The notes beneath the pieces are model-generated. The model did no database searches, was not told the origin of the DNA, and worked only from the letters and a program-made list of their open reading frames with translations. 8,851 nucleotides of DNA, from the IMG/VR virus record IMGVR_UViG_2778261667_000005, positions 1-8,851 of that record; one strand, written 5' to 3'. Below are positions 2 through 8,851 of this stretch, piece after piece (the stretch's first letter is position 1; each line of letters opens with the position of its first letter). This DNA comes from a virus. Taxonomy: Duplodnaviria > Heunggongvirae > Uroviricota > Caudoviricetes. The position numbers and the translations under genes are program-made.

Positions 2-214
2 GATAAATCGCATAAGGAAACTTGTGAAGTATTCAGCAAACAACCGCCGAGAACCCTCGCCCAATGCGGGCGGGGAGCAGTCACGAAAGCGCCTGGTGGC
101 GGCAGTCATCAGAAAGTGAGCCTGAACGGAAAGCGGTCGGTTTTCCCGGATCACGGTTCAAAGGAAATGCCTGAACCGCTACGCAAGAAAATAATGAGGG
201 ACCTGGGGCTTTAA
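2..214 (+). CDS. hicA: HicA-family toxin (mRNA interferase), 5' end truncated by window edge
   Basis: Frame 2 is open from the first base with no start codon in the window and ends at TAA 212-214. The translated C-terminus ...APGGGSHQKVSLNGKRSVFPDHGSKEMPEPLRKKIMRDLGL has the HicA pattern (GSH, conserved basic patch, P-x-H, C-terminal LGL) and resembles E. coli HicA as I recall it. It is followed 30 nt later by hicB. Not in the ORF track because the start lies outside the window. Confidence 0.7.
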   Translation, partial: DKSHKETCEVFSKQPPRTLAQCGRGAVTKAPGGGSHQKVSLNGKRSVFPDHGSKEMPEPLRKKIMRDLGL

Positions 215-762: not shown

Positions 763-1062
763 ATGACCAGCATAGAAACGAAACACCTTTGGAATTTGCT
801 CCCTAAGTTTAAAAGCAATAAAGTCCTTCATGCATCAAAAATCAAAAATATCGAGATTATCTCATCGATTGGTAATACCCCTATTTGTGGCTATATCACA
901 TTAATGGAACCCCAAGGCGTAACAGTTCGTGTTGATGCAGCGTTTTTGCAAAAACACCGGCCAGATACTGGCGGCTATCTGCTCGGTTATGAGGACGGTT
1001 ATCTGTCCTATTTGCCGGAAGAACCATTTGAAGATATTTTCAAATATATTGCCGACGCGTGA
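763..1062 (+). CDS. Hypothetical 99 aa protein with acidic C-terminus; no family recognised
   Basis: ORF with SD GAGG at 753-756. Product MTSIETKHLWNLLPKF...YLPEEPFEDIFKYIADA. AT-richer than its neighbours by eye (roughly 40% GC). Followed by an intrinsic terminator. Confidence 0.65.
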   Translation: MTSIETKHLWNLLPKFKSNKVLHASKIKNIEIISSIGNTPICGYITLMEPQGVTVRVDAAFLQKHRPDTGGYLLGYEDGYLSYLPEEPFEDIFKYIADA

Positions 1063-1102
1063 CAAAATACCTTTGTTTTGTTCTTCCTTTGCCTTGATTC
1101 AC

Positions 1103-1136
1103 CGCAAACTCTTCCCGTTTCGCAGTTTGCTTTTTG
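1103..1136 (+). terminator. Rho-independent terminator for the plus-strand hicAB/orf99 unit
   Basis: Stem GCAAACT (1104-1110) pairs with AGTTTGC (1124-1130) around a 13 nt loop, followed by TTTTT (1131-1135). On the minus strand the A-run precedes the stem, so this is plus-strand specific. Confidence 0.45.
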
Positions 1137-1189: not shown

Positions 1190-2575
1190 TCATTTTTCTA
1201 GGGGAACAGTTACCCGTTTTGTCGGGCTTTCAAACATAACAAAGTTAAGCCCTTTCCCCTCACCATATTCCTGTTCAATCTCATCAGAAACGGCGGTTAA
1301 AATATTACGCAGATCGACATCTCCACCACCGAACATATCGCCAAGCGCCTGTTGTTTATGAATCAGCTCGTCGTTGATTTTTTGTGCCATTTTTTTGAAT
1401 GCTGCCCCCATACGCTTCGCGCTACGATTATTTGCTACGATGAATAGCGCCAACGCCTCCGCTTCCGGCGTGCTGTCGCCAAATAACCCCCTTTGGGCGA
1501 TCACTTCTTCAACGGCCTGACCATTGTCTTTGGCTTCACGAACAAGATTGATTGCTTCCTGGAGTGCCGCAATTGCCTGTGTATCCAGACCATTAACTTG
1601 CTCTATACCGTCCACTAAACCAGTTACGGCGCCATGGTGAACGTCGCCAGACAGCGACTGCATTTGCGCAAAATCGCTGGCAGCCGTATTTAATGCGGTA
1701 AGTATATTGCGCATTTCCGGATCCGGTTCTTCCGCGACAAACCGAACAAGCCTTTCATCCTTGTACGCTTTGGCAAAAATTGCATTCTGGATGCGATCGA
1801 TAAGCTGTTTCGTTGGGCGCCCATCGGCAGTAAGCAAACCTGCCGTCGCTGTATCGCCTATTTCGCGCAAAAACGCACGAATAAACGCATCATTAGACCG
1901 TGCCAGCAGATTTCCATCATCTGAAGGATTAAATAGCGCCATGACGCTCTCAGTGAGAAATTGCGCATCCGCATACGCTTTTTCACTTGCTGCCATCTCT
2001 TGCAGATCGCTAATGTTTGAATCGCGGGCAAATTGAGCGCGGTCTACATCTGTGAGTCTTTCTCGCACCAGTACGGGCATAGACATTTGCGAAATTTCGT
2101 CAGGATTCAGACCAAACTCTTTCGCATGGTCGATCAAGTACTGACGATACTCATCCGCCTGTCCTTGCTCATAGGCACGCCAGATCCCCATACTCCTTCC
2201 GTTGCCGGATTCAACAACGTTGTCCGGACCAACTATCGGCGCTCCGTGGCTGCTCATACCGGAATCCGTTAATTGTGCCGGGCGTAAAGTGGAGGCAATG
2301 CGGTTAACCTGAAGTTTACTGGATAGACGTGTGCGATCACGTGGCTGGAGTTCTTCCGGGAAGGCCGGGTTAATCGTACCGTCAAGGTTATTCGAAATGA
2401 TTAGGCTACTGGCATCAACAACCTTAAAAGCTGTCTTTACCTCTGCGCCTTTGCTGGTGACTACGTAGCTACTTCGTCCCAGGCGAGTTTCTTTCCTCTC
2501 TAATGAAGAAACCAGAGCAATGATGCTGTTAATGTCTGCGGCCTCGGAAAGCGCAGAAGTAACTGACTTGTTCAC
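1190..2575 (-). CDS. ParB/Srx-like domain protein (461 aa); terminal gene of the Dar-like operon (P1 ddrB position), function unknown
   Basis: Long ORF starting at GTG 2575 with SD AGGGGGAG 6 nt upstream. Residues about 50-135 (KVVDASSLIISNN...EELQPRDRTRLSSKLQVNRIAS...GAPIVGPDNVVESGNGRSMGIW) follow the ParB N-terminal domain layout (beta strand, QPR box, helix, G-x-x-R box) with SGNGRS in place of the canonical GERRxRA. QPRDR is encoded at 2333-2347. Confidence 0.6.
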   Translation of the reverse strand: MNKSVTSALSEAADINSIIALVSSLERKETRLGRSSYVVTSKGAEVKTAFKVVDASSLIISNNLDGTINPAFPEELQPRDRTRLSSKLQVNRIASTLRPAQLTDSGMSSHGAPIVGPDNVVESGNGRSMGIWRAYEQGQADEYRQYLIDHAKEFGLNPDEISQMSMPVLVRERLTDVDRAQFARDSNISDLQEMAASEKAYADAQFLTESVMALFNPSDDGNLLARSNDAFIRAFLREIGDTATAGLLTADGRPTKQLIDRIQNAIFAKAYKDERLVRFVAEEPDPEMRNILTALNTAASDFAQMQSLSGDVHHGAVTGLVDGIEQVNGLDTQAIAALQEAINLVREAKDNGQAVEEVIAQRGLFGDSTPEAEALALFIVANNRSAKRMGAAFKKMAQKINDELIHKQQALGDMFGGGDVDLRNILTAVSDEIEQEYGEGKGLNFVMFESPTKRVTVPLEK

Positions 2576-2644
2576 AATACACTCCCCCTATAGAGAAAGC
2601 TGGAAGTGTAAAAAGTGTGTGATTTATGGAGGCACAAGTAAGTG

Positions 2645-2666
2645 AAAGGGGCATTTCAACCCCTTT
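2645..2666. terminator. 7 bp stem-loop in the 94 nt gap between the 122 aa and 461 aa genes (possible attenuator)
   Basis: AAAGGGG (2645-2651) pairs with CCCCTTT (2660-2666) around an 8 nt loop. The T tract is partly inside the stem, so this is weak as a terminator. Confidence 0.25.
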
Positions 2667-2669
2667 TGA

Positions 2670-3038
2670 TTACCCGGCATAACCGTTGGCTTTCACCCAA
2701 CTTATGGTCTTCTCTTTAGCCTGCTCCAACGTCAGGAACTCGCCTACATAGTTTGAGAGTCCACGCAGCACATCAATAAACTCCATTTGCGTGGACTTTG
2801 TGAATTCCCCTCTAAGGAAGTCAGTCACTATCTTAGGAACTTCATCTACAACAGGAGCAGTCTGTTGTTGCAGCTCCGCTGCCGGTTGCGCGGCAGTCCC
2901 CAGTCCCAATTTCAGCATCACATCAACAATCTGCTTACCAATGGTGACGCGTTGCAATACTGGCGCGATTTTCTGCGCCTGCATTAGATCTGATAGCTCT
3001 TTACCTAATTTCAGGCGGTCTAAAACAGAGATAGTCAT
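2670..3038 (-). CDS. Small 122 aa protein, Dar-like operon member (P1 ddrA position, tentative)
   Basis: ATG at 3038-3036 overlaps the stop of the upstream 650 aa gene (TAATG). SD GGGAGG lies 7 nt upstream. No motif recognised; the call is by position and size only. Confidence 0.5.
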   Translation of the reverse strand: MTISVLDRLKLGKELSDLMQAQKIAPVLQRVTIGKQIVDVMLKLGLGTAAQPAAELQQQTAPVVDEVPKIVTDFLRGEFTKSTQMEFIDVLRGLSNYVGEFLTLEQAKEKTISWVKANGYAG

Positions 3039-4990
3039 TAAGCACCTCCCTGCTGAATTTCAGCCAGAATGTTGATCAGGTAGTCAACTGCTGCACCCAC
3101 AGTGGCTTCGTTCTCGTCGTATCGACCTGCACTGATAAGAGCGTTTGCAGCTTCCTGCACATGGTCAAGTTCGGCACTGATTACCGTCAGATCGCGGGAT
3201 GTAAACTGCACCGGGACGGATTTAAGGTACTCCAACGCTTTATCTGCTTCCTGATCAGCTTCAGTTGCCGCTTCTCCAGCGTCTTCCGGCGTTGGCTGTT
3301 GCTCTGGTTCTGTTTGTGGGTGTGATTCTGGCTCAACTACAGGTGCTAATTCAGGCTCTGGCGTTGCTTCGTTTGAATGATTTTGAAGGGCGTTATATAC
3401 GTCCATAATGAAAAGGTTCTCCCCATCACCAAGCGGATAAGCCACGTTCGGAAACTCTTTGCGGAAAAGAATTTTCACTTGCGCCTTGAATGTTTTCAGG
3501 TCACTGCCAAACAGGTCTACATAACCATCAATATGTTTCGACATGCTGGACGCAACCAATTGGCCTGCAAAATCTTTCAGCTCATCTTCATCAGGAAGAT
3601 AGAGCAACTCGTACTGGCTGACTTCTTCATCTGTCAGTTTACGGTCATACGTAATGATACCGTGACGTGCATATTCGTAATACTGATCAGCCTGGTCAGG
3701 ACGTCCAAATACGGCTTTATTTCCTTCCGGTACAGTACCTACACCAGCCGGACGAGACTGGAGTGCATAGCGGTATTTGCCAACATCTTCAAGGCTAGAT
3801 TGATAAAGCGCATGGCGATATTTGCTAACATTCTGTGTTGCCTGGCTGTTATTCTGATAACGGTTCAGATCCTGTGGCAACACATCCACCTTGTATTGTT
3901 CAGCTTTATGTCCGCGATAGGCTTTTAGCAATTTAGTGGCCGCATCTGCAAGAGTACCACCTTTAACAGTGCTGGTATCAATACAGTAGTTACCTTCAGG
4001 CGCTGAGATCGTAACATAGGTTTCAGCGCCTGACGTGACATAGTTAACCACCGCGCCGTTATCCAGTGTAGTTTTACCGCCAGTTGCGAGATTGTGTTTT
4101 ACGTGTCGAAGTTGGTCGCTGAACGCTCGTTCTTTCGTTTTTTCACCTTTAGCAGACAACAATTTATCGCGTTTTGCTTGTAATTCCTCGTTGATGGCTT
4201 TCTGGGCATCAAGTTTTTTTTGCATCTCCGTAAGAGCAGCACGCTTTTCAGTCAGACCACGTTGAGCTACTTCCACCTGATCAATCATTATTGACCGTTG
4301 TTCTGCTAGTTTATCTGCTTCATTGAGATAACTCTCAATATCTGCCTTCATTTTGTCCTGGCGCTCTTTTGCTTTCTTAAATTTTTCGCTGTTACGCTCA
4401 ATCAAATTAGATAGCGCCTGGCATACCTGGCTTAAAGAAACATCTCTCCCACCAATCGGGGCGACAACGTGAGTTACGTTACGCTTATTAAGTAAAAACT
4501 GAAATGCAACCAGTTCATCATTACCCTTGATTTTCGCGCCATCGGCGGTTGGAGAGTGGAAAATGATGCTTGTGCTTTGCCCATCAGTCAGTGGTATCTG
4601 TGCTGTTAAAACAGGAATATTAGCTACGCGACGAACACGCCCGATAATTGCTCCGCCAATACAATTCCGACCATTTTCATCCGCCCCTGCTTCATCAGTT
4701 CCGGCTGATATATTCGTTCCATTCAGGCCACGATTTAGCGCGCGCACGAAAGCCCGCATTGTTTGTGCAAGCCTGATTCTGGTCGTTGTGATGGCCTCAA
4801 ACATAGCTTCGTCGGACACAACAAGAATTTCATTGCCCATATAGGCAAGCTCGATATCTTCTAATGTAGCCGCTTCAAAAATCAGATCGTCTTCACTTAA
4901 ATCCTCCGAAGACCAGCGGCTTGGGGTATAACCAGGAATCGTATCAGCGAAAGTAGATTGAATATTGATCCGTATGGGATTCTTAATCAT
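3038..4990 (-). CDS. DarA-like large protein (650 aa), putative virion-packaged anti-restriction/head morphogenesis component (tentative)
   Basis: ATG at 4990-4988 overlaps the upstream stop (ATGA). N-terminal globular part, a K/E/A/Q-rich predicted coiled coil (residues about 198-292, nt about 4115-4399), and an acidic P/E-rich linker (nt 3239-3373). Size and operon position match P1 DarA as I recall it. The 205 aa upstream product repeats part of its architecture, as expected for Hdf (homolog of DarA fragment). Confidence 0.45.
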   Translation of the reverse strand: MIKNPIRINIQSTFADTIPGYTPSRWSSEDLSEDDLIFEAATLEDIELAYMGNEILVVSDEAMFEAITTTRIRLAQTMRAFVRALNRGLNGTNISAGTDEAGADENGRNCIGGAIIGRVRRVANIPVLTAQIPLTDGQSTSIIFHSPTADGAKIKGNDELVAFQFLLNKRNVTHVVAPIGGRDVSLSQVCQALSNLIERNSEKFKKAKERQDKMKADIESYLNEADKLAEQRSIMIDQVEVAQRGLTEKRAALTEMQKKLDAQKAINEELQAKRDKLLSAKGEKTKERAFSDQLRHVKHNLATGGKTTLDNGAVVNYVTSGAETYVTISAPEGNYCIDTSTVKGGTLADAATKLLKAYRGHKAEQYKVDVLPQDLNRYQNNSQATQNVSKYRHALYQSSLEDVGKYRYALQSRPAGVGTVPEGNKAVFGRPDQADQYYEYARHGIITYDRKLTDEEVSQYELLYLPDEDELKDFAGQLVASSMSKHIDGYVDLFGSDLKTFKAQVKILFRKEFPNVAYPLGDGENLFIMDVYNALQNHSNEATPEPELAPVVEPESHPQTEPEQQPTPEDAGEAATEADQEADKALEYLKSVPVQFTSRDLTVISAELDHVQEAANALISAGRYDENEATVGAAVDYLINILAEIQQGGA

Positions 4991-5604
4991 GCTTCATCCT
5001 CCAGTCGCGCGATTTCTTCTTTAAGCGCACGCGTCTTAGCTTGTTCCTGAGACAAGGCCGCTTTAACGTTATCCGCATCTTGCATTGCCTTGTCTGACTT
5101 GCTTTGGATCTTAGCCAGTTTGTCGTTAGCATTAGCGATATCTTCACGGAGTGCATCACGTGATTCTTTCGCTTCAGCTAATTTCTGAGCGTTAGATTTA
5201 ACTCCCTCCCGCTTCTTATTTCCGTCATCAATATTTTTTGCTACACGAGCAAGTTTTCGAGCTAATGACTTCTGGAAAGAAGTTGCTCCGCGATTAAATA
5301 AAGCCGCGAGAGACTGCCCCAAAGCCGCCATTGTTTTTACTGGCTTGAACGGTACTGTTTTACCATTCAGTTTTATCCCAGATATATCACCGGTATCGTT
5401 AACCTGGACTTCCATTGTCTGTTCATCAATACCAACAAGGGTAAACGTGCGCGTCATAATCCCATCTTTCTTCCTGCCATTACTAGCAGGGATCACCCTC
5501 GCTATCTTGTAACCACCTTTACTGATTTCTTTGACGAGTTTTGCCAGCCCCTTTTCGTTTAACTCATCATAATTAAGAAGAACATAATTAGTCTTATTTG
5601 ACAT
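4987..5604 (-). CDS. Hdf-like protein (about 205 aa): globular domain plus coiled coil paralogous to the middle of the 650 aa protein (tentative)
   Basis: I place the start at ATG 5604-5602, which has a near-perfect SD AAGGAG 6 nt upstream, rather than the GTG at 5619 used by the ORF track (no SD). Stop TGA at 4989-4987 overlaps the next start. Pattern IKLNGKTVPF...ALGQSLAALFNR + coiled coil parallels KIKGNDELVAF...SQVCQALSNLIER + coiled coil in the 650 aa protein. Confidence 0.45.
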   Translation of the reverse strand: MSNKTNYVLLNYDELNEKGLAKLVKEISKGGYKIARVIPASNGRKKDGIMTRTFTLVGIDEQTMEVQVNDTGDISGIKLNGKTVPFKPVKTMAALGQSLAALFNRGATSFQKSLARKLARVAKNIDDGNKKREGVKSNAQKLAEAKESRDALREDIANANDKLAKIQSKSDKAMQDADNVKAALSQEQAKTRALKEEIARLEDEA

Positions 5605-6040
5605 TCCAGTCTCCTTCACGCTTTTCGATCGTAAACTGGCGCTCTATGCTGTCATTGATAGGGAAAATGCGATAAAGCGGATTTAGTCGGCAGTTACCGT
5701 TTGTCAATGTGACTTTCAGATCCCACTTCGTTGGCTCAAGATATTTCGTATCGATGAGCAAATACTCTTCTCTCTCACCGCGTTTTGAAGCGTCAACTGG
5801 TCGCGTTTTCCCTGAAATAACCACCGATGGATTTTTCAGGTCTTGCAACCAATATTCGATTTGAGCGTTGCTCACCCAGCTTCGCTTAACACGTAGCGAA
5901 ACAGGAAATGCTATAGCGGATTCTTTCACTACAGCGTCACCAATACTCAAAATCTCAACGCTCTTGCGGCGAAATAAGAAACGGTCAACGACGGCAACAA
6001 ATGCCATGATAAAAATGAAATAATTTCCAAAGTTACCCAT
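5594..6040 (-). CDS. Membrane-anchored 148 aa protein (one N-terminal TM helix); LydB-like putative holin antagonist/lysis regulator (tentative)
   Basis: ATG at 6040-6038 overlaps the stop of the upstream holin-like gene (TAATG). SD GGTGGAG. N-terminal hydrophobic stretch YFIFIMAFVAVVDRFLF followed by a soluble domain. Confidence 0.4.
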   Translation of the reverse strand: MGNFGNYFIFIMAFVAVVDRFLFRRKSVEILSIGDAVVKESAIAFPVSLRVKRSWVSNAQIEYWLQDLKNPSVVISGKTRPVDASKRGEREEYLLIDTKYLEPTKWDLKVTLTNGNCRLNPLYRIFPINDSIERQFTIEKREGDWNVK

Positions 6041-6366
6041 TATTTCTCTCCACCTTTTCCCCCACTCATAATTACGCTTATGAGATTCAAGACATTGCCA
6101 GCTCTGGACTTCAAGCCTTGCAAGATTTCGCTTCCGTTGTTACTGGTAATCAGAACAACGCAGAAAATGATACCTTCAGGCCATTCTTGGCTAACCGCCA
6201 CTCCATACCCCGCAAGCCCGGCTGTTACCGCAGTAAACAATTCACTCGCAAGATTGAGCAGGGACGCAGAAATGCGCCCGTCTCTAACTCCGAGAAGGAA
6301 TACGCCGGTTCCACTTAGTAGGGATGTTATGACTACTACAGCCAGATTTTCATAATCTGCAAACAT
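6040..6366 (-). CDS. Holin-like small membrane protein (108 aa, three predicted TM helices, charged C-terminus); LydA-like
   Basis: ATG 6366-6364 with GGAGG upstream. Hydrophobic segments LAVVVITSLLSGTGVFLLGV, LLNLASELFTAVTAGLAGYGVAV and GIIFCVVLITS, with C-terminal GGKGGEK. First gene of the coupled operon. Confidence 0.5.
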   Translation of the reverse strand: MFADYENLAVVVITSLLSGTGVFLLGVRDGRISASLLNLASELFTAVTAGLAGYGVAVSQEWPEGIIFCVVLITSNNGSEILQGLKSRAGNVLNLISVIMSGGKGGEK

Positions 6367-6444
6367 ACCCCTCCAGAAATAACATCTAATGCGCCACTAA
6401 CTTAGTCAGTTTGTTATTTCTTTACAGAACATCTTGTGACAGCT

Positions 6445-6464
6445 CCCCGCCCTGTCGGGCGGGG
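6445..6464. other. Perfect 8 bp GC stem-loop (CCCCGCCC tgtc GGGCGGGG) without a U tract, in the intergenic region upstream of the holin-like gene
   Basis: Read directly from the sequence. Sits about 80-100 nt upstream of the minus-strand operon start. Neither strand has a T-run after it. Confidence 0.5.
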
Positions 6465-6530
6465 CTTCCCACTTCTTAGTCCGCACCGTCTGTATGACGG
6501 ATTCTGGCCTTTTTACGATTTGTGCTTCCC

Positions 6531-6562
6531 TTTTGTTTGCGGGATAGCGCTTTTTGTTTGCG
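6531..6562. repeat. 11 bp direct repeat TTTTGTTTGCG x2, spaced 21 bp (two helical turns)
   Basis: Copies at 6531-6541 and 6552-6562, in non-coding DNA upstream of the Dar-like operon. Candidate regulator binding sites. Confidence 0.45.
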
Positions 6563-6667
6563 TCGCAGATTTCGGCTGGCATTAACTTCCGGAGTCTCAC
6601 TGACTCCATCGACACCAGTACACCAATGGGCGCTTTTCCTTTCACGTAATGGGGGGCGCTGACAGAA

Positions 6668-6829
6668 ATGGAATGCGAGCTTATCGAAGCTGACAGCCTC
6701 TGGAACGCGCCGTCAGGCTGAATATGGCAACGGATGAGGAACACACGACTGGAGGAGTGGGAACGCTACAGCGTTCTGGTCAGTCGTGTGGAGCCTGCAA
6801 ATCCTGAATGGACAGATAAACCAGAGTAA
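6668..6829 (+). pseudogene. Decayed remnant of a second tail-fibre assembly (Tfa) gene, C-terminal part only, convergent with the intact tfa
   Basis: Plus-strand frame reads [58 protein letters not shown]. The last about 30 residues match the Tfa C-terminal motif (lambda Tfa ...[26 protein letters not shown]..., and the intact Tfa here ...LINWMKYVQQVEATDTS...). In-frame TGA at 6719-6721. No Tfa-like sequence in any frame further upstream. Confidence 0.5.
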
Positions 6830-6833
6830 AAAT

Positions 6834-6861
6834 TAAGGCCCAGCATCGGGCCTTTTATTAT
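6834..6861. terminator. Bidirectional Rho-independent terminator between the convergent tfa and Tfa remnant
   Basis: Stem AGGCCC (6836-6841) pairs with GGGCCT (6848-6853) around a 6 nt loop. Followed by TTTATTATT on the plus strand and preceded by AAAAATT (T5 on the minus strand). The stops of both flanking reading frames abut it. Confidence 0.65.
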
Positions 6862-7277
6862 TCAGGCTGTTCCGGGAATATTACTGGTAGCGTAGAAGTG
6901 TCAGTTGCCTCAACTTGCTGCACGTATTTCATCCAGTTTATCAGTTGTTGTCTATCTGAATCACTGATAATCCCCAATGAAAGCTGAGTTTGCCAAAACT
7001 GAGTTTTATCCCTGACAAACTGTAGCAAGGATTGTTTCTTCTTTTCCGCCAGATTAATCATTTCAGCTTCAGTCAGTGGCTCTGGTTCTGTTACAACAGG
7101 CTGACCATCTTCATTGGGATTTATTGTTTTCCCCTCTGATTGTTTGTCAAGAAGATAACGATACCGTTTTTCTGAAATGGAAATAGCATCATTAGGCCAT
7201 GACCCATTGCTGTCATAATCATCCTTTAAATTATCATCATAAAAACCATTAGTTGACGGGCTGTAATATATCGTCAT
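6858..7277 (-). CDS. tfa: Tail fibre assembly protein (Tfa/gpU-type chaperone)
   Basis: 139 aa. N-terminal MTIYYSPSTNGFYDD is the typical Tfa start; the C-terminal ...LINWMKYVQQVEATDTSTLP... matches the Tfa C-terminal motif. ATG lies 1 nt after the tail-fibre stop (TAATATG). Confidence 0.8.
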   Translation of the reverse strand: MTIYYSPSTNGFYDDNLKDDYDSNGSWPNDAISISEKRYRYLLDKQSEGKTINPNEDGQPVVTEPEPLTEAEMINLAEKKKQSLLQFVRDKTQFWQTQLSLGIISDSDRQQLINWMKYVQQVEATDTSTLPVIFPEQPE

Positions 7278-7278
7278 A

Positions 7279-8271
7279 TTAATAACCTATAGCTGTCCAG
7301 TACATATTACCATTCCCTTCGCTATTGAAGGTTGCTCCAGTTTTGGATAGAGAGTTAACCGCAATGCTGTAATCAAAACGCCCATGAGCATTGGTAATTG
7401 TTATATTGACGCAGGCAGATGGGAAAGCGATAGGGAAAGTTAATCCCGCGCCAGCATTAGAAATATATCCCCACTGTGTGATGAGTCCAGTTGAAACATC
7501 TTTATGCCAGCCATTAGCGGCTTTTGATACAGTATTTTTTGCTTGATAACGGGAATCAAAATTACCGTAATCTGATGGAGTCACCTGACCTGCGACATTA
7601 ACTGGCTTGTTACTCTGCAAAGTACCATTCTGAAAGCGGAATACATGCTGGCCATTTGCATAAACATCAAGCAGGCCGTCACCGTTCTGTTTAAAACCAG
7701 TATCATTATCGCCAAGAACGATAGAGTTACCGCCAAGAGCATTTGCAGTACCCAGACCAAGAGAACCATTAACCGTTAAACCGTTCCCAATAGTTACTCC
7801 ACCACTGGCATCGTTAATGGTAAGCGGCCTTAAACTATTCCATGTTCCCAGGCTGTCGCCCGAATTGGTCAACATGAAGTATGTGTTTGAACCATCGTTT
7901 CGGATAAAGAATCCATAGTTACCCTGTACGATGCGGAAGCCGTTTCCTGATTTGGAAACAATCTCGCCAGCAGCCGTTAAACCGCCGGTAAGAGTTCCTC
8001 CTGTTATTGGCAATGCACCAATATCTTCAGGCGTGAGGTTAATGTCTTTTGAACCATCAAACGAAACGGAATTAATCTTTCGCGCGGTTTTTAGTTTTGT
8101 GGCTGTTGAGGCGTTTCCGGACAGCTCACCAGAAATGCCACCAACAACTGTTAGATCACCAGTTATTGTGCCGCCTGAACTTTCCAGTTTTTTAGCAACA
8201 TCACTCTTAATAGAGTCGATTTCTTTTTTCAGATTAGTTATATCTGCTGGTATCGTTGTCACTGTTGCCAT
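7279..8271 (-). CDS. Tail fibre protein: stand-alone 330 aa distal (receptor-binding) segment of lambda Stf / side-tail-fibre type
   Basis: Own ATG with SD TAAGGA 8 nt upstream. Contains ...ATKLKTARKINSVSFDGSKDINLTPEDIGA... and ...GGNSIVLGDNDTGFKQNGDGLLDVYANGQHVFRFQNG...GNFDSRYQ..., which are characteristic of lambdoid/P2/Mu-family side tail fibre distal regions. Immediately followed by tfa. Confidence 0.75.
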   Translation of the reverse strand: MATVTTIPADITNLKKEIDSIKSDVAKKLESSGGTITGDLTVVGGISGELSGNASTATKLKTARKINSVSFDGSKDINLTPEDIGALPITGGTLTGGLTAAGEIVSKSGNGFRIVQGNYGFFIRNDGSNTYFMLTNSGDSLGTWNSLRPLTINDASGGVTIGNGLTVNGSLGLGTANALGGNSIVLGDNDTGFKQNGDGLLDVYANGQHVFRFQNGTLQSNKPVNVAGQVTPSDYGNFDSRYQAKNTVSKAANGWHKDVSTGLITQWGYISNAGAGLTFPIAFPSACVNITITNAHGRFDYSIAVNSLSKTGATFNSEGNGNMYWTAIGY

Positions 8272-8280
8272 ATTAATTCC

Positions 8281-8559
8281 TTACGCCCATTCCCGCAGCG
8301 GTTGTTCTAATTGAACTTCAAAACCATCAAACATTTGTTGTTTCAAACTGTCGTTTAAAATACGAACATTAACAAAGAAGCCATCATTTTTAATCACTGT
8401 TGGTTCTTCGTTCTCGCCGTTTGGTATTTCGGTATATGTAATACCTACAACATCAAGAAGGATGTTGTTTTGCAGTTCTTCATTATCGTGCCAGGATATA
8501 CTCTCTAAAAAAGAGTCGTATTCTGCCCTGTCTCTGAATTTCAACGTAATATCTTTCAT
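8281..8559 (-). CDS. Hypothetical 92 aa protein between a LamG-domain protein and the tail fibre (possible adaptor/linker)
   Basis: ATG overlaps the upstream stop (TAATG). In the same reading frame as the downstream fibre gene, separated by TAA plus 3 codons. No motif recognised. Confidence 0.5.
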   Translation of the reverse strand: MKDITLKFRDRAEYDSFLESISWHDNEELQNNILLDVVGITYTEIPNGENEEPTVIKNDGFFVNVRILNDSLKQQMFDGFEVQLEQPLREWA

Positions 8560-8851
8560 TAAATAACCTCAGCCATTTGTTGGTCTGTCAATTCTTTATG
8601 CCAAATGCGTAAATTTTTCACATGACCAAATAAATGACGTAACCCCGCTGTAGTCTGGCCTCCAATACGGATGGTTGCAGAGTTCTGAATATAGGACCAC
8701 GTAGTCTTTGTTTCGCTGGATATGCGCCCGTTACTTACTGAGCACGTAGACTGATCTGACTTTACACGCATCCCCATAACCATTTTTTCAAGCGATGCGT
8801 TTTCGTTTACCCGTCTGTTAGCTCCTCCAATATCGCAATAAGGAAATCCGT
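8559..8851 (-). CDS. C-terminal end of a larger protein with a LamG/concanavalin-like (Laminin_G_3-type) domain; probable tail/baseplate or receptor-binding protein. N-terminus outside window
   Basis: The minus-strand frame stays open to the window end (...GFPYCDIGGANRRVNENASLEKMVMGM...), so the M at 8783 used by the ORF track is internal. C-terminus ...ATIRIGGQTTAGLRHLFGHVKNLRIWHKELTDQQMAEVI matches the terminal beta-strand signature of LamG-like jelly-roll domains (F-G-h-h-D/N-h-R-I-W/Y-x-x-x-L-S/T-x-x-Q/E-h). Confidence 0.45.
   Translation of the reverse strand, partial: GFPYCDIGGANRRVNENASLEKMVMGMRVKSDQSTCSVSNGRISSETKTTWSYIQNSATIRIGGQTTAGLRHLFGHVKNLRIWHKELTDQQMAEVI

Follow-up and report, generated by a model that had tools for sequence, protein, structure and literature searches.

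The question raised by this locus is whether six co-directional genes, carried on the minus strand at positions 1190-6366 of an 8.85-kb stretch of viral DNA (IMG/VR record IMGVR_UViG_2778261667_000005), constitute a virion-borne counter-restriction cassette like the darA operon of phage P1, and whether the terminal gene of the cluster has been turned toward a different host defence. The whole 8,851-nucleotide stretch is referred to here as the window, and all coordinates are positions within it. With a probability of roughly 0.9, the locus represents the late dar operon of an Escherichia phage-plasmid that is D6-like and related to P1. The cassette itself is already known, being annotated in coliphage D6 and in RefSeq plasmids, and the window carries an intact, ordinary copy of it. 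What is mildly new is a ddrB gene that appears to be separately promoted, is peptidase-less and is sometimes absent, together with a candidate consensus for D6-type late promoters.

In P1, the late dar operon comprises the holin LydA, its antagonist LydB, and antirestriction and head-morphogenesis functions (PMC9025707). All six window products fall into PHROGs families named after the P1 proteins LydA, LydB, Hdf, DarA, DdrA and DdrB (E values from 3e-37 to 0), and BLASTP against the P1 proteins found all six to be homologous, with 33-64% identity and in the same order. This agrees with a first-pass annotation of the window, which had named the P1 darA operon as the counterpart and had proposed that gene order and sizes match; the first five products are indeed 108, 148, 205, 650 and 122 residues long, compared with 109, 147, 203, 639 and 121 residues in P1. 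The leading gene, lydA (6040..6366, minus strand, 108 residues), encodes a homologue of P1 LydA (42% identity, E = 2e-23) that also matches PHROG 1527 "holin" (E = 3e-37) and is 95% identical to D6 LydA, with a ratio of nonsynonymous to synonymous substitution rates (dN/dS) of 0.21. Its strongly hydrophobic segment at residues 9-27 (Kyte-Doolittle mean 2.16), followed by a second hydrophobic region in the same protein, is in keeping with the holin-like character previously assigned to the first product. The second gene, lydB (5594..6040, minus strand, 148 residues), encodes the LydA antagonist or antiholin, as indicated by the Pfam family LydB (PF16084, 89.1 bits), PHROG 1898 (E = 4e-68) and P1 LydB (35% identity, E = 3e-31). 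The single transmembrane anchor earlier attributed to this product was not confirmed as worded, since residues 5-23 reach a 19-residue Kyte-Doolittle mean of 1.67 and are broken by Asp19, making the N-terminal stretch a borderline candidate for a membrane span. No transmembrane domain is predicted for P1 LydB (Bednarek et al. 2022, PMC9025707).

The next two genes encode paralogues that share an N-terminal domain. hdf (4987..5604, minus strand) specifies 205 residues counted from the ATG at 5604, and its product resembles P1 Hdf (40% identity, E = 4e-32), belongs to PHROG 1620 "Hdf-like antirestriction" (E = 8e-75) and matches chain 9ukm_H of the solved P1 virion over residues 3-201. Immediately downstream of this short paralogue, which has a C-terminal helical domain, lies darA (3038..4990, minus strand, 650 residues), encoding the internal head and antirestriction protein (38% identity to P1 DarA over 629 residues, E = 1e-136). 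Searches with the DarA N- and C-terminal domain profiles detected DarA_N in Hdf (66.6 bits) and both DarA_N (135.7 bits) and DarA_C (67.6 bits) in DarA. Over its full length, DarA also scores 1099.9 bits, against a cutoff of 350, with the NCBIfam equivalog NF052326 "antirestriction phage head protein DarA", and it matches the solved P1 virion chain 9ukm_I (E = 1e-116). The fifth product, DdrA (2670..3038, minus strand, 122 residues), is 33% identical to P1 DdrA (E = 8e-23) and matches PHROG 1855 "DdrA-like anti-restriction protein" (E = 2.5e-47); no Pfam family was found for it.

Direct reading of the sequence located six minus-strand open reading frames (ORFs) and established how they are joined. 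The lydA/lydB junction is a TAATG at 6042-6038, in which the A at 6040 is shared between the lydA stop codon and the lydB ATG, and the darA/ddrA junction is a TAATG at 3040-3036 with a shared A at 3038. hdf and darA are linked by an ATGA at 4990-4987, and lydB and hdf overlap by 11 nt at 5604-5594. The hdf ATG at 5604 is preceded by the ribosome-binding site GAAGGAG at 5616-5610, and the longest hdf ORF begins with a GTG at 5619. The six ORFs and the four junctions reported by the first-pass annotation are therefore exact. Its description of six genes chained by overlaps is correct for lydA through ddrA (five genes, four overlaps) and does not extend to ddrB (1190..2575, minus strand, 461 residues), which starts with a GTG at 2575 after a 94-nt non-coding interval (2669-2576) following the ddrA stop at 2670. 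The overlapping junctions are not the product of chance: strong homologues exist for each ORF, and comparison with two related elements gives dN/dS values of 0.05-0.33.

The window is 91.9% identical at the nucleotide level to coliphage D6 over positions 1230-6685, and the D6 record (NC_050154 / MF356679) annotates orf25-orf30 as "similar to P1 gene" ddrB, ddrA, darA, hdf, lydB and lydA. D6 has the same six genes in the same order, with the same overlaps, a ddrA-ddrB gap of 94-95 nt containing a hairpin, a short DdrB and both of the promoter motifs described below, and its six proteins are 88-97% identical to the window products. The two differ in DdrB, which in D6 has 454 residues, another C-terminal tail and a TTG start (461 residues and a GTG start in the window), and in their flanks. 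On the upstream side, D6 has an intact cin gene with an invertible tail-fibre segment and the window a cin pseudogene; on the downstream side, D6 has orf23/orf24 (DUF4145) and the window a module made up of hicA'/hicB and orf99. D6-like phage-plasmids of E. coli and Salmonella carry the same operon. Matches to some part of the window occur in more than 500 plasmid records and in 1,326 of 5,426 complete E. coli genomes. Across the operon, the plasmids that match best are 90-94% identical to the window; the flanks are mosaic, and no database record is close to the window over its whole length. Recent Prokaryotic Genome Annotation Pipeline (PGAP) annotations already name DarA in related plasmids.

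Across all six genes, dN/dS is 0.07-0.21 relative to D6 and 0.05-0.33 relative to a more distant plasmid, and since the ratio is low for every gene, the six genes are maintained by selection. The D6 genome also encodes homologues of lpa, darB and ulx elsewhere. Other proteins show comparable identity between D6 and P1 (portal 50%, Pro 43%, Ulx 46%, DarB 42%), so the divergence of the Dar proteins from their P1 counterparts reflects ordinary lineage distance.

The terminal gene was where the first-pass annotation had expected divergence from P1 to signal a different defence target, an expectation that the comparison does not bear out. DdrB is the most P1-like product of the operon (64% identity, against 33-42% for the others) and differs only by the missing C-terminal half. 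The window protein aligns with residues 2-442 of the 995-residue P1 DdrB, with 64% identity over 447 residues, and stops about 10 residues past the end of this homology. It contains the Pfam domain ddrB-ParB (PF18763, 144.4 bits) at residues 42-173, with the ParB/Srx-type GNGR motif intact, and it also has a helical region. The C-terminal half of P1 DdrB carries the metallopeptidase motif HELGHH, and the window protein is without an HExxH peptidase; a tblastn search for residues 450-995 of P1 DdrB, covering the window, 88 kb of D6 and three plasmid loci, returned no match. The short form also occurs in D6 and in three of four related plasmids inspected, among them pPSS-10_3 and the A3176 plasmid, and its dN/dS between the window and D6 is 0.07. 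In the fourth, an E. marmotae plasmid, lydA through ddrA are present and ddrB is absent.

The C-terminus of P1 DdrB is a zincin-like metallopeptidase proposed to self-process the protein before packaging, and the N-terminal ParB fragment is predicted to be the packaged part (Iyer et al. 2017, PMC5512222). Because the window DdrB corresponds to the ParB module of P1 DdrB minus its C-terminal half, its sequence identifies it as a conserved ParB-like module alone and argues against a new effector. The 64% identity and the GNGR motif therefore favour the same activity and the same partners for the short protein, which is most simply viewed as the N-terminal fragment made directly, since that fragment is the part predicted to be packaged in P1. 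Antisense to ddrB, a frame matching P1 iddB (1605-2000, plus strand) runs for 131 codons without a stop, with 61% identity to P1 IddB. It lacks the start codon used in P1, the first possible start being a TTG at 1707, and selection on ddrB, encoded opposite, may be all that lies behind the resemblance.

Inspection of the regions upstream of D6 late operons led to the recognition of a shared motif, often reading AAATCACAnACT..., which occurs twice in the window. A candidate late promoter of the lydA-ddrA unit lies at 6399..6419 (minus strand) and reads AAATAACA-AACTGAC-TAAGTT, that is, an upstream box, a 7-nt spacer and a -10-like hexamer, ending 33 nt upstream of the lydA ATG. A candidate second late promoter, for ddrB, lies at 2605..2625 (minus strand) and reads AAATCACA-CACTTTT-TACACT; it is an exact match to the D6-type motif and ends 30 nt upstream of the ddrB GTG. 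In its strict form, AAATMACA-N7-TANNNT, the motif is found at these two sites in the window (6419-6399 and 2625-2605) against an expectation of 0.01. The looser form, AAATMACA-N7-YANNNT, has nine occurrences across 88 kb of D6, where about 0.3 would be expected, and each copy stands 30-140 nt upstream of a late gene or operon in the same orientation, with none elsewhere in the 88 kb. The D6 copies precede the tail-fibre operon (R), pmgB, the major capsid gene 23, mat, darB, the orf16 lysozyme gene, prt, ddrB and lydA. The copy upstream of lydA is conserved in place in D6 and three related plasmids, and that upstream of ddrB is conserved in place in D6, pPSS-10_3 and the A3176 plasmid; the ddrB-less E. 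marmotae plasmid has the motif upstream of prt and lydA only. A scan for sigma-70 promoters and terminators gave counts no higher than in shuffled sequences, with no sigma-70-type site upstream of lydA.

Because the motif is placed before nine D6 late operons, AAATMACA-N7-YANNNT is read as a putative late promoter of the D6 lineage. Right after the ddrA stop, at 2645..2666 (minus strand), lies a hairpin of the form AAAGGGGU-loop-GCCCCUUU (minimum free energy -15.6 kcal/mol, z-score -2.4), which is conserved in D6 and two plasmids and was missed by the terminator scan because it lacks a clean T-run; it is a possible partial terminator or RNA-stability element. The cassette would thus comprise two late units, one being lydA-lydB-hdf-darA-ddrA and the other ddrB, served by its own promoter plus read-through of the hairpin. 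Two other candidate promoter elements were set aside. The sequence AAGTTAGTG (6403-6395) had been considered as a P1-type -22 box, like AAGTTACTT of the P1 promoter LPdar, and was dropped when the D6 upstream regions proved to share another motif; the conserved TAAGTT is better read as the -10 element of the D6-type motif. Likewise, ACTTACTTgtgcCTCCAT in the ddrA-ddrB gap resembles LPdar but lacks conservation in D6 and the other plasmids, and it was rejected in favour of the conserved AAATCACA-N7-TACACT. Within 35 kb of P1, the D6-type motif has a single match (AAATCACAAAGTACATACCGT, at about 31571-31591, minus strand), 39 nt upstream of lydC, for which only a predicted early promoter has been described (PMC9025707); this match may be chance or a relic.

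Taken together, the short protein, the promoter motif behind the hairpin and the absence of the gene from at least one otherwise intact relative raise the possibility that ddrB in the D6 lineage is a detachable add-on and not the operon's last cistron, made as a peptidase-less ParB module from its own late promoter, a proposal to which we give slightly less than even odds. If it is true, the natural ddrB variants could be used to test the unproven idea that P1 DdrB is packaged and active as its N-terminal ParB fragment, and would show that Dar can work without the peptidase. The comparison also yields AAATMACA-N7-YANNNT as a candidate late-promoter consensus of the D6 type, unlike that of P1.

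From the parallels with P1, we infer the expression timing, packaging and antirestriction activity of the window cassette as follows. During late lytic growth, an Lpa-type activator would switch on the promoter at about 6419-6399, and lydA-lydB-hdf-darA-ddrA would be expressed as one translationally coupled unit, while the second promoter of the same type (2625-2605), located behind the hairpin, would drive or boost ddrB. LydA would serve as the holin and LydB would postpone its triggering, thereby governing the timing of lysis. Pairs of Hdf and DarA would be taken into the procapsid and bound to the inner face of the shell at penton-hexon junctions, where they would help set head size and would be needed to load DdrA, DdrB and, encoded elsewhere in the genome, DarB and Ulx. 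In contrast to P1 DdrB, the window protein, being the ParB-like module alone, would not cleave itself with a C-terminal zinc peptidase when it is packaged. On infection, the Dar proteins would exit the head with the DNA and shield that DNA in cis from Type I restriction.

The proposed mechanism draws on studies of P1. Hdf, DarA, DdrA, DdrB, DarB and Ulx are detected in purified P1 virions (PMC9024508), and cryo-electron microscopy shows the inside of the P1 capsid lined at penton-hexon junctions by 55 pairs of DarA and Hdf, which touch the DNA and are missing from emptied heads (PMC12810830). If either DarA or Hdf is missing, the other Dar proteins are excluded and heads shift to the small form (PMC12810830). 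DarA is required against EcoA and StySA, and DarB, Ulx and DdrB are required against EcoB and EcoK (PMC12810830). The P1 Dar system acts only in cis, on co-packaged DNA, and also counters the bacteriophage exclusion (BREX) system (PMC12707154), and all genes of the P1 dar operon are non-essential on a permissive host (PMC10695390).

Several observations weigh against reading the locus as a functional dar operon. The window LydA scores 18.5 bits with Pfam Phage_holin_3_3, under the gathering score of 28.4. The genes darB, ulx and lpa, together with those for the prohead protease and the capsid protein, lie outside the window. The promoter motif rests on sequence statistics and differs from the P1 -22 box, and it is D6, not the window, that is known to encode an Lpa homologue. 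Expression, packaging and antirestriction likewise derive from homology to P1, not from the window sequence, and in the literature no experimentally tested Dar protein of the D6 lineage was found. In addition, the neighbouring cin and hicA are pseudogenes, so the prophage could be defective. Taken to its limit, this decay would make the cluster a silent, functionless remnant in a defective plasmid prophage: about 108 nt of cin are left amid insertion sequence (IS) fragments, the alternative set of tail-fibre genes has been lost, an IS scar puts hicA out of frame, and a 5' relic of prt persists at 1061-1122. Yet all six ORFs are intact, with ribosome-binding sites and coupled junctions, dN/dS is 0.05-0.33, both promoter motifs are intact, and the functions that were lost (host-range switching and a toxin) are accessory, which renders such a remnant very improbable.

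A different view of the cassette treats it chiefly as a capsid-assembly module, with Hdf and DarA as auxiliary scaffold and head-size determinants and with antirestriction minor or absent here. Deletion of darA or hdf in P1 lowers the share of normal-size heads from about 80% to about 15%, and the DarA-Hdf pairs are structural components of the inner capsid surface (PMC12810830); moreover, Hdf, DarA and DdrA, at 33-40% identity to P1, have diverged to a degree similar to that of the portal (50%) and of the prohead protease (43%), which would be natural for proteins evolving together with the capsid. However, the capsid and antirestriction roles are not exclusive in P1, D6 keeps darB and ulx, whose only known role is antirestriction, and DdrA and DdrB have no known morphogenetic role and are nevertheless under purifying selection, so this view is somewhat unlikely. 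A narrower alternative concerns the short DdrB alone, which might be a distinct effector against a host defence other than that met by P1 DdrB, for instance a free ParB-like nuclease or nucleoside triphosphatase. The loss of the metallopeptidase half, the promoter-like motif of its own behind the hairpin, the dispensability of ddrB in at least one relative (the E. marmotae plasmid) and the prediction that DdrB-type ParB domains are DNases or nucleotidases (PMC5512222) would all suit such an effector. The retained 447 residues, GNGR motif included, are nonetheless the part of the operon best conserved with P1 (64%), and the ParB fragment is the part predicted to be packaged in P1 (Iyer et al., PMC5512222), making a changed target quite unlikely. 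The late dar operon, with its proposed head and antirestriction functions, remains the preferred explanation of the locus.

The upstream flank is heavily rearranged. Only nucleotides 250-357 of the cin invertase gene are left, at 6578-6686 (plus strand), and its 5' part is replaced by two tnpB 3' fragments and an IS200/IS605-type right-end hairpin (6436-6583); the hairpin ends with GTCAC at 6436 (minus strand), and 16 nt separate it from the box of the lydA promoter. Deletion has removed the 3' part of cin together with cixL, the alternative tail-fibre genes and much the greater part of a second, convergent tail-fibre-assembly gene, of which a 3' relic survives at 6694-6831. A search for cix recombination sites across the window, allowing up to 5 mismatches, found none, and because no such site is left in the window, the tail-fibre (host-range) switch is frozen. 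A GC-rich hairpin at 6835-6854, with T-runs on both strands, lies between the relic and the other tail-fibre-assembly gene and looks like a bidirectional terminator. The latter gene (6858-7277, minus strand) encodes a 139-residue Caudo_TAP protein and belongs to a mosaic tail-fibre end (6858-8851, minus strand), segments of which share 73-92% identity with fibre genes from siphoviruses that are unrelated and from P2-like phages. This end also encodes a 330-residue distal fibre protein (Gp34_trimer and Gp53-like_C) and a 92-residue ORF (phrog_1361), and it closes with the 3' end of a large S-type fibre gene.

The downstream flank carries a disrupted toxin-antitoxin pair. The hicA toxin pseudogene (24-214, plus strand) retains 13 nt of coding sequence before a 48-nt IS scar at 37-84. 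Made up of 41 nt of left end and 7 nt of right end from a TnpB-only IS, the scar takes the place of 40 nt of hicA and causes a frameshift. The scar derives from the same IS as the fragments at cin, and the E. marmotae plasmid NZ_CP056699 carries a complete copy of this IS at the same hicA site. The hicB gene (245-676) is intact and constitutes an orphan antitoxin. An Rfam scan of the whole window at E<=1, including the IS remnants with their possible TnpB omega-RNA, returned no match. A 99-residue ORF at 763-1062 (plus strand) matches PHROGs of unknown function only (phrog_11049, E = 2e-18); it has no Pfam or NCBIfam family and is absent from D6 and the other related loci inspected. Between this ORF and ddrB lies a degenerate 5' untranslated region of prt (portal) with the first 11 codons of the gene, in which the ATG has become AAG (1061-1122, minus strand); it is probably a vestige of the event that placed the hicAB/orf99 module between prt and ddrB.

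Beyond correct annotation, the locus carries little weight. It represents a complete, predicted virion-borne cassette for counter-restriction and head assembly, from a family of phage-plasmids that is very common in E. coli. The cassette does bear on predicting the passage of phage-plasmids, often with resistance genes, across Type I restriction barriers. In addition, the short, apparently separately promoted DdrB and the ddrB-less relative offer natural variants for dissecting the roles of DdrB and its peptidase in the P1 Dar system.

Compared with the P1 darA operon (NC_005856, late promoter LPdar), the window operon shows the same gene order, near-identical sizes for five genes and tight junctions, and in both a holin/antiholin pair heads the antirestriction and head-morphogenesis genes. 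The architecture of the candidate promoter is also alike, comprising an upstream box and a -10 element with no -35 element, whereas the P1 -22 box is AAGTGAYTT with a 4-nt spacer and the window box is AAATMACA with a 7-nt spacer. The proteins have diverged to 33-42% identity (64% for the N-terminal module of DdrB), and the P1 operon differs further in its 995-residue DdrB with a C-terminal HExxH peptidase, encoded 12 nt after ddrA with no promoter between them, in the presence of lydC upstream and in the overlap of hxr with the end of ddrB. T4 internal protein I (IPI*) and other capsid-packaged anti-restriction proteins follow the same concept of being preloaded in the head and injected with the DNA (PMC12810830, PMC5512222), but IPI* has no sequence relationship to the Dar proteins and inhibits one specific enzyme, whereas the Dar system has several components, works in cis on the DNA and is bound up with capsid assembly.

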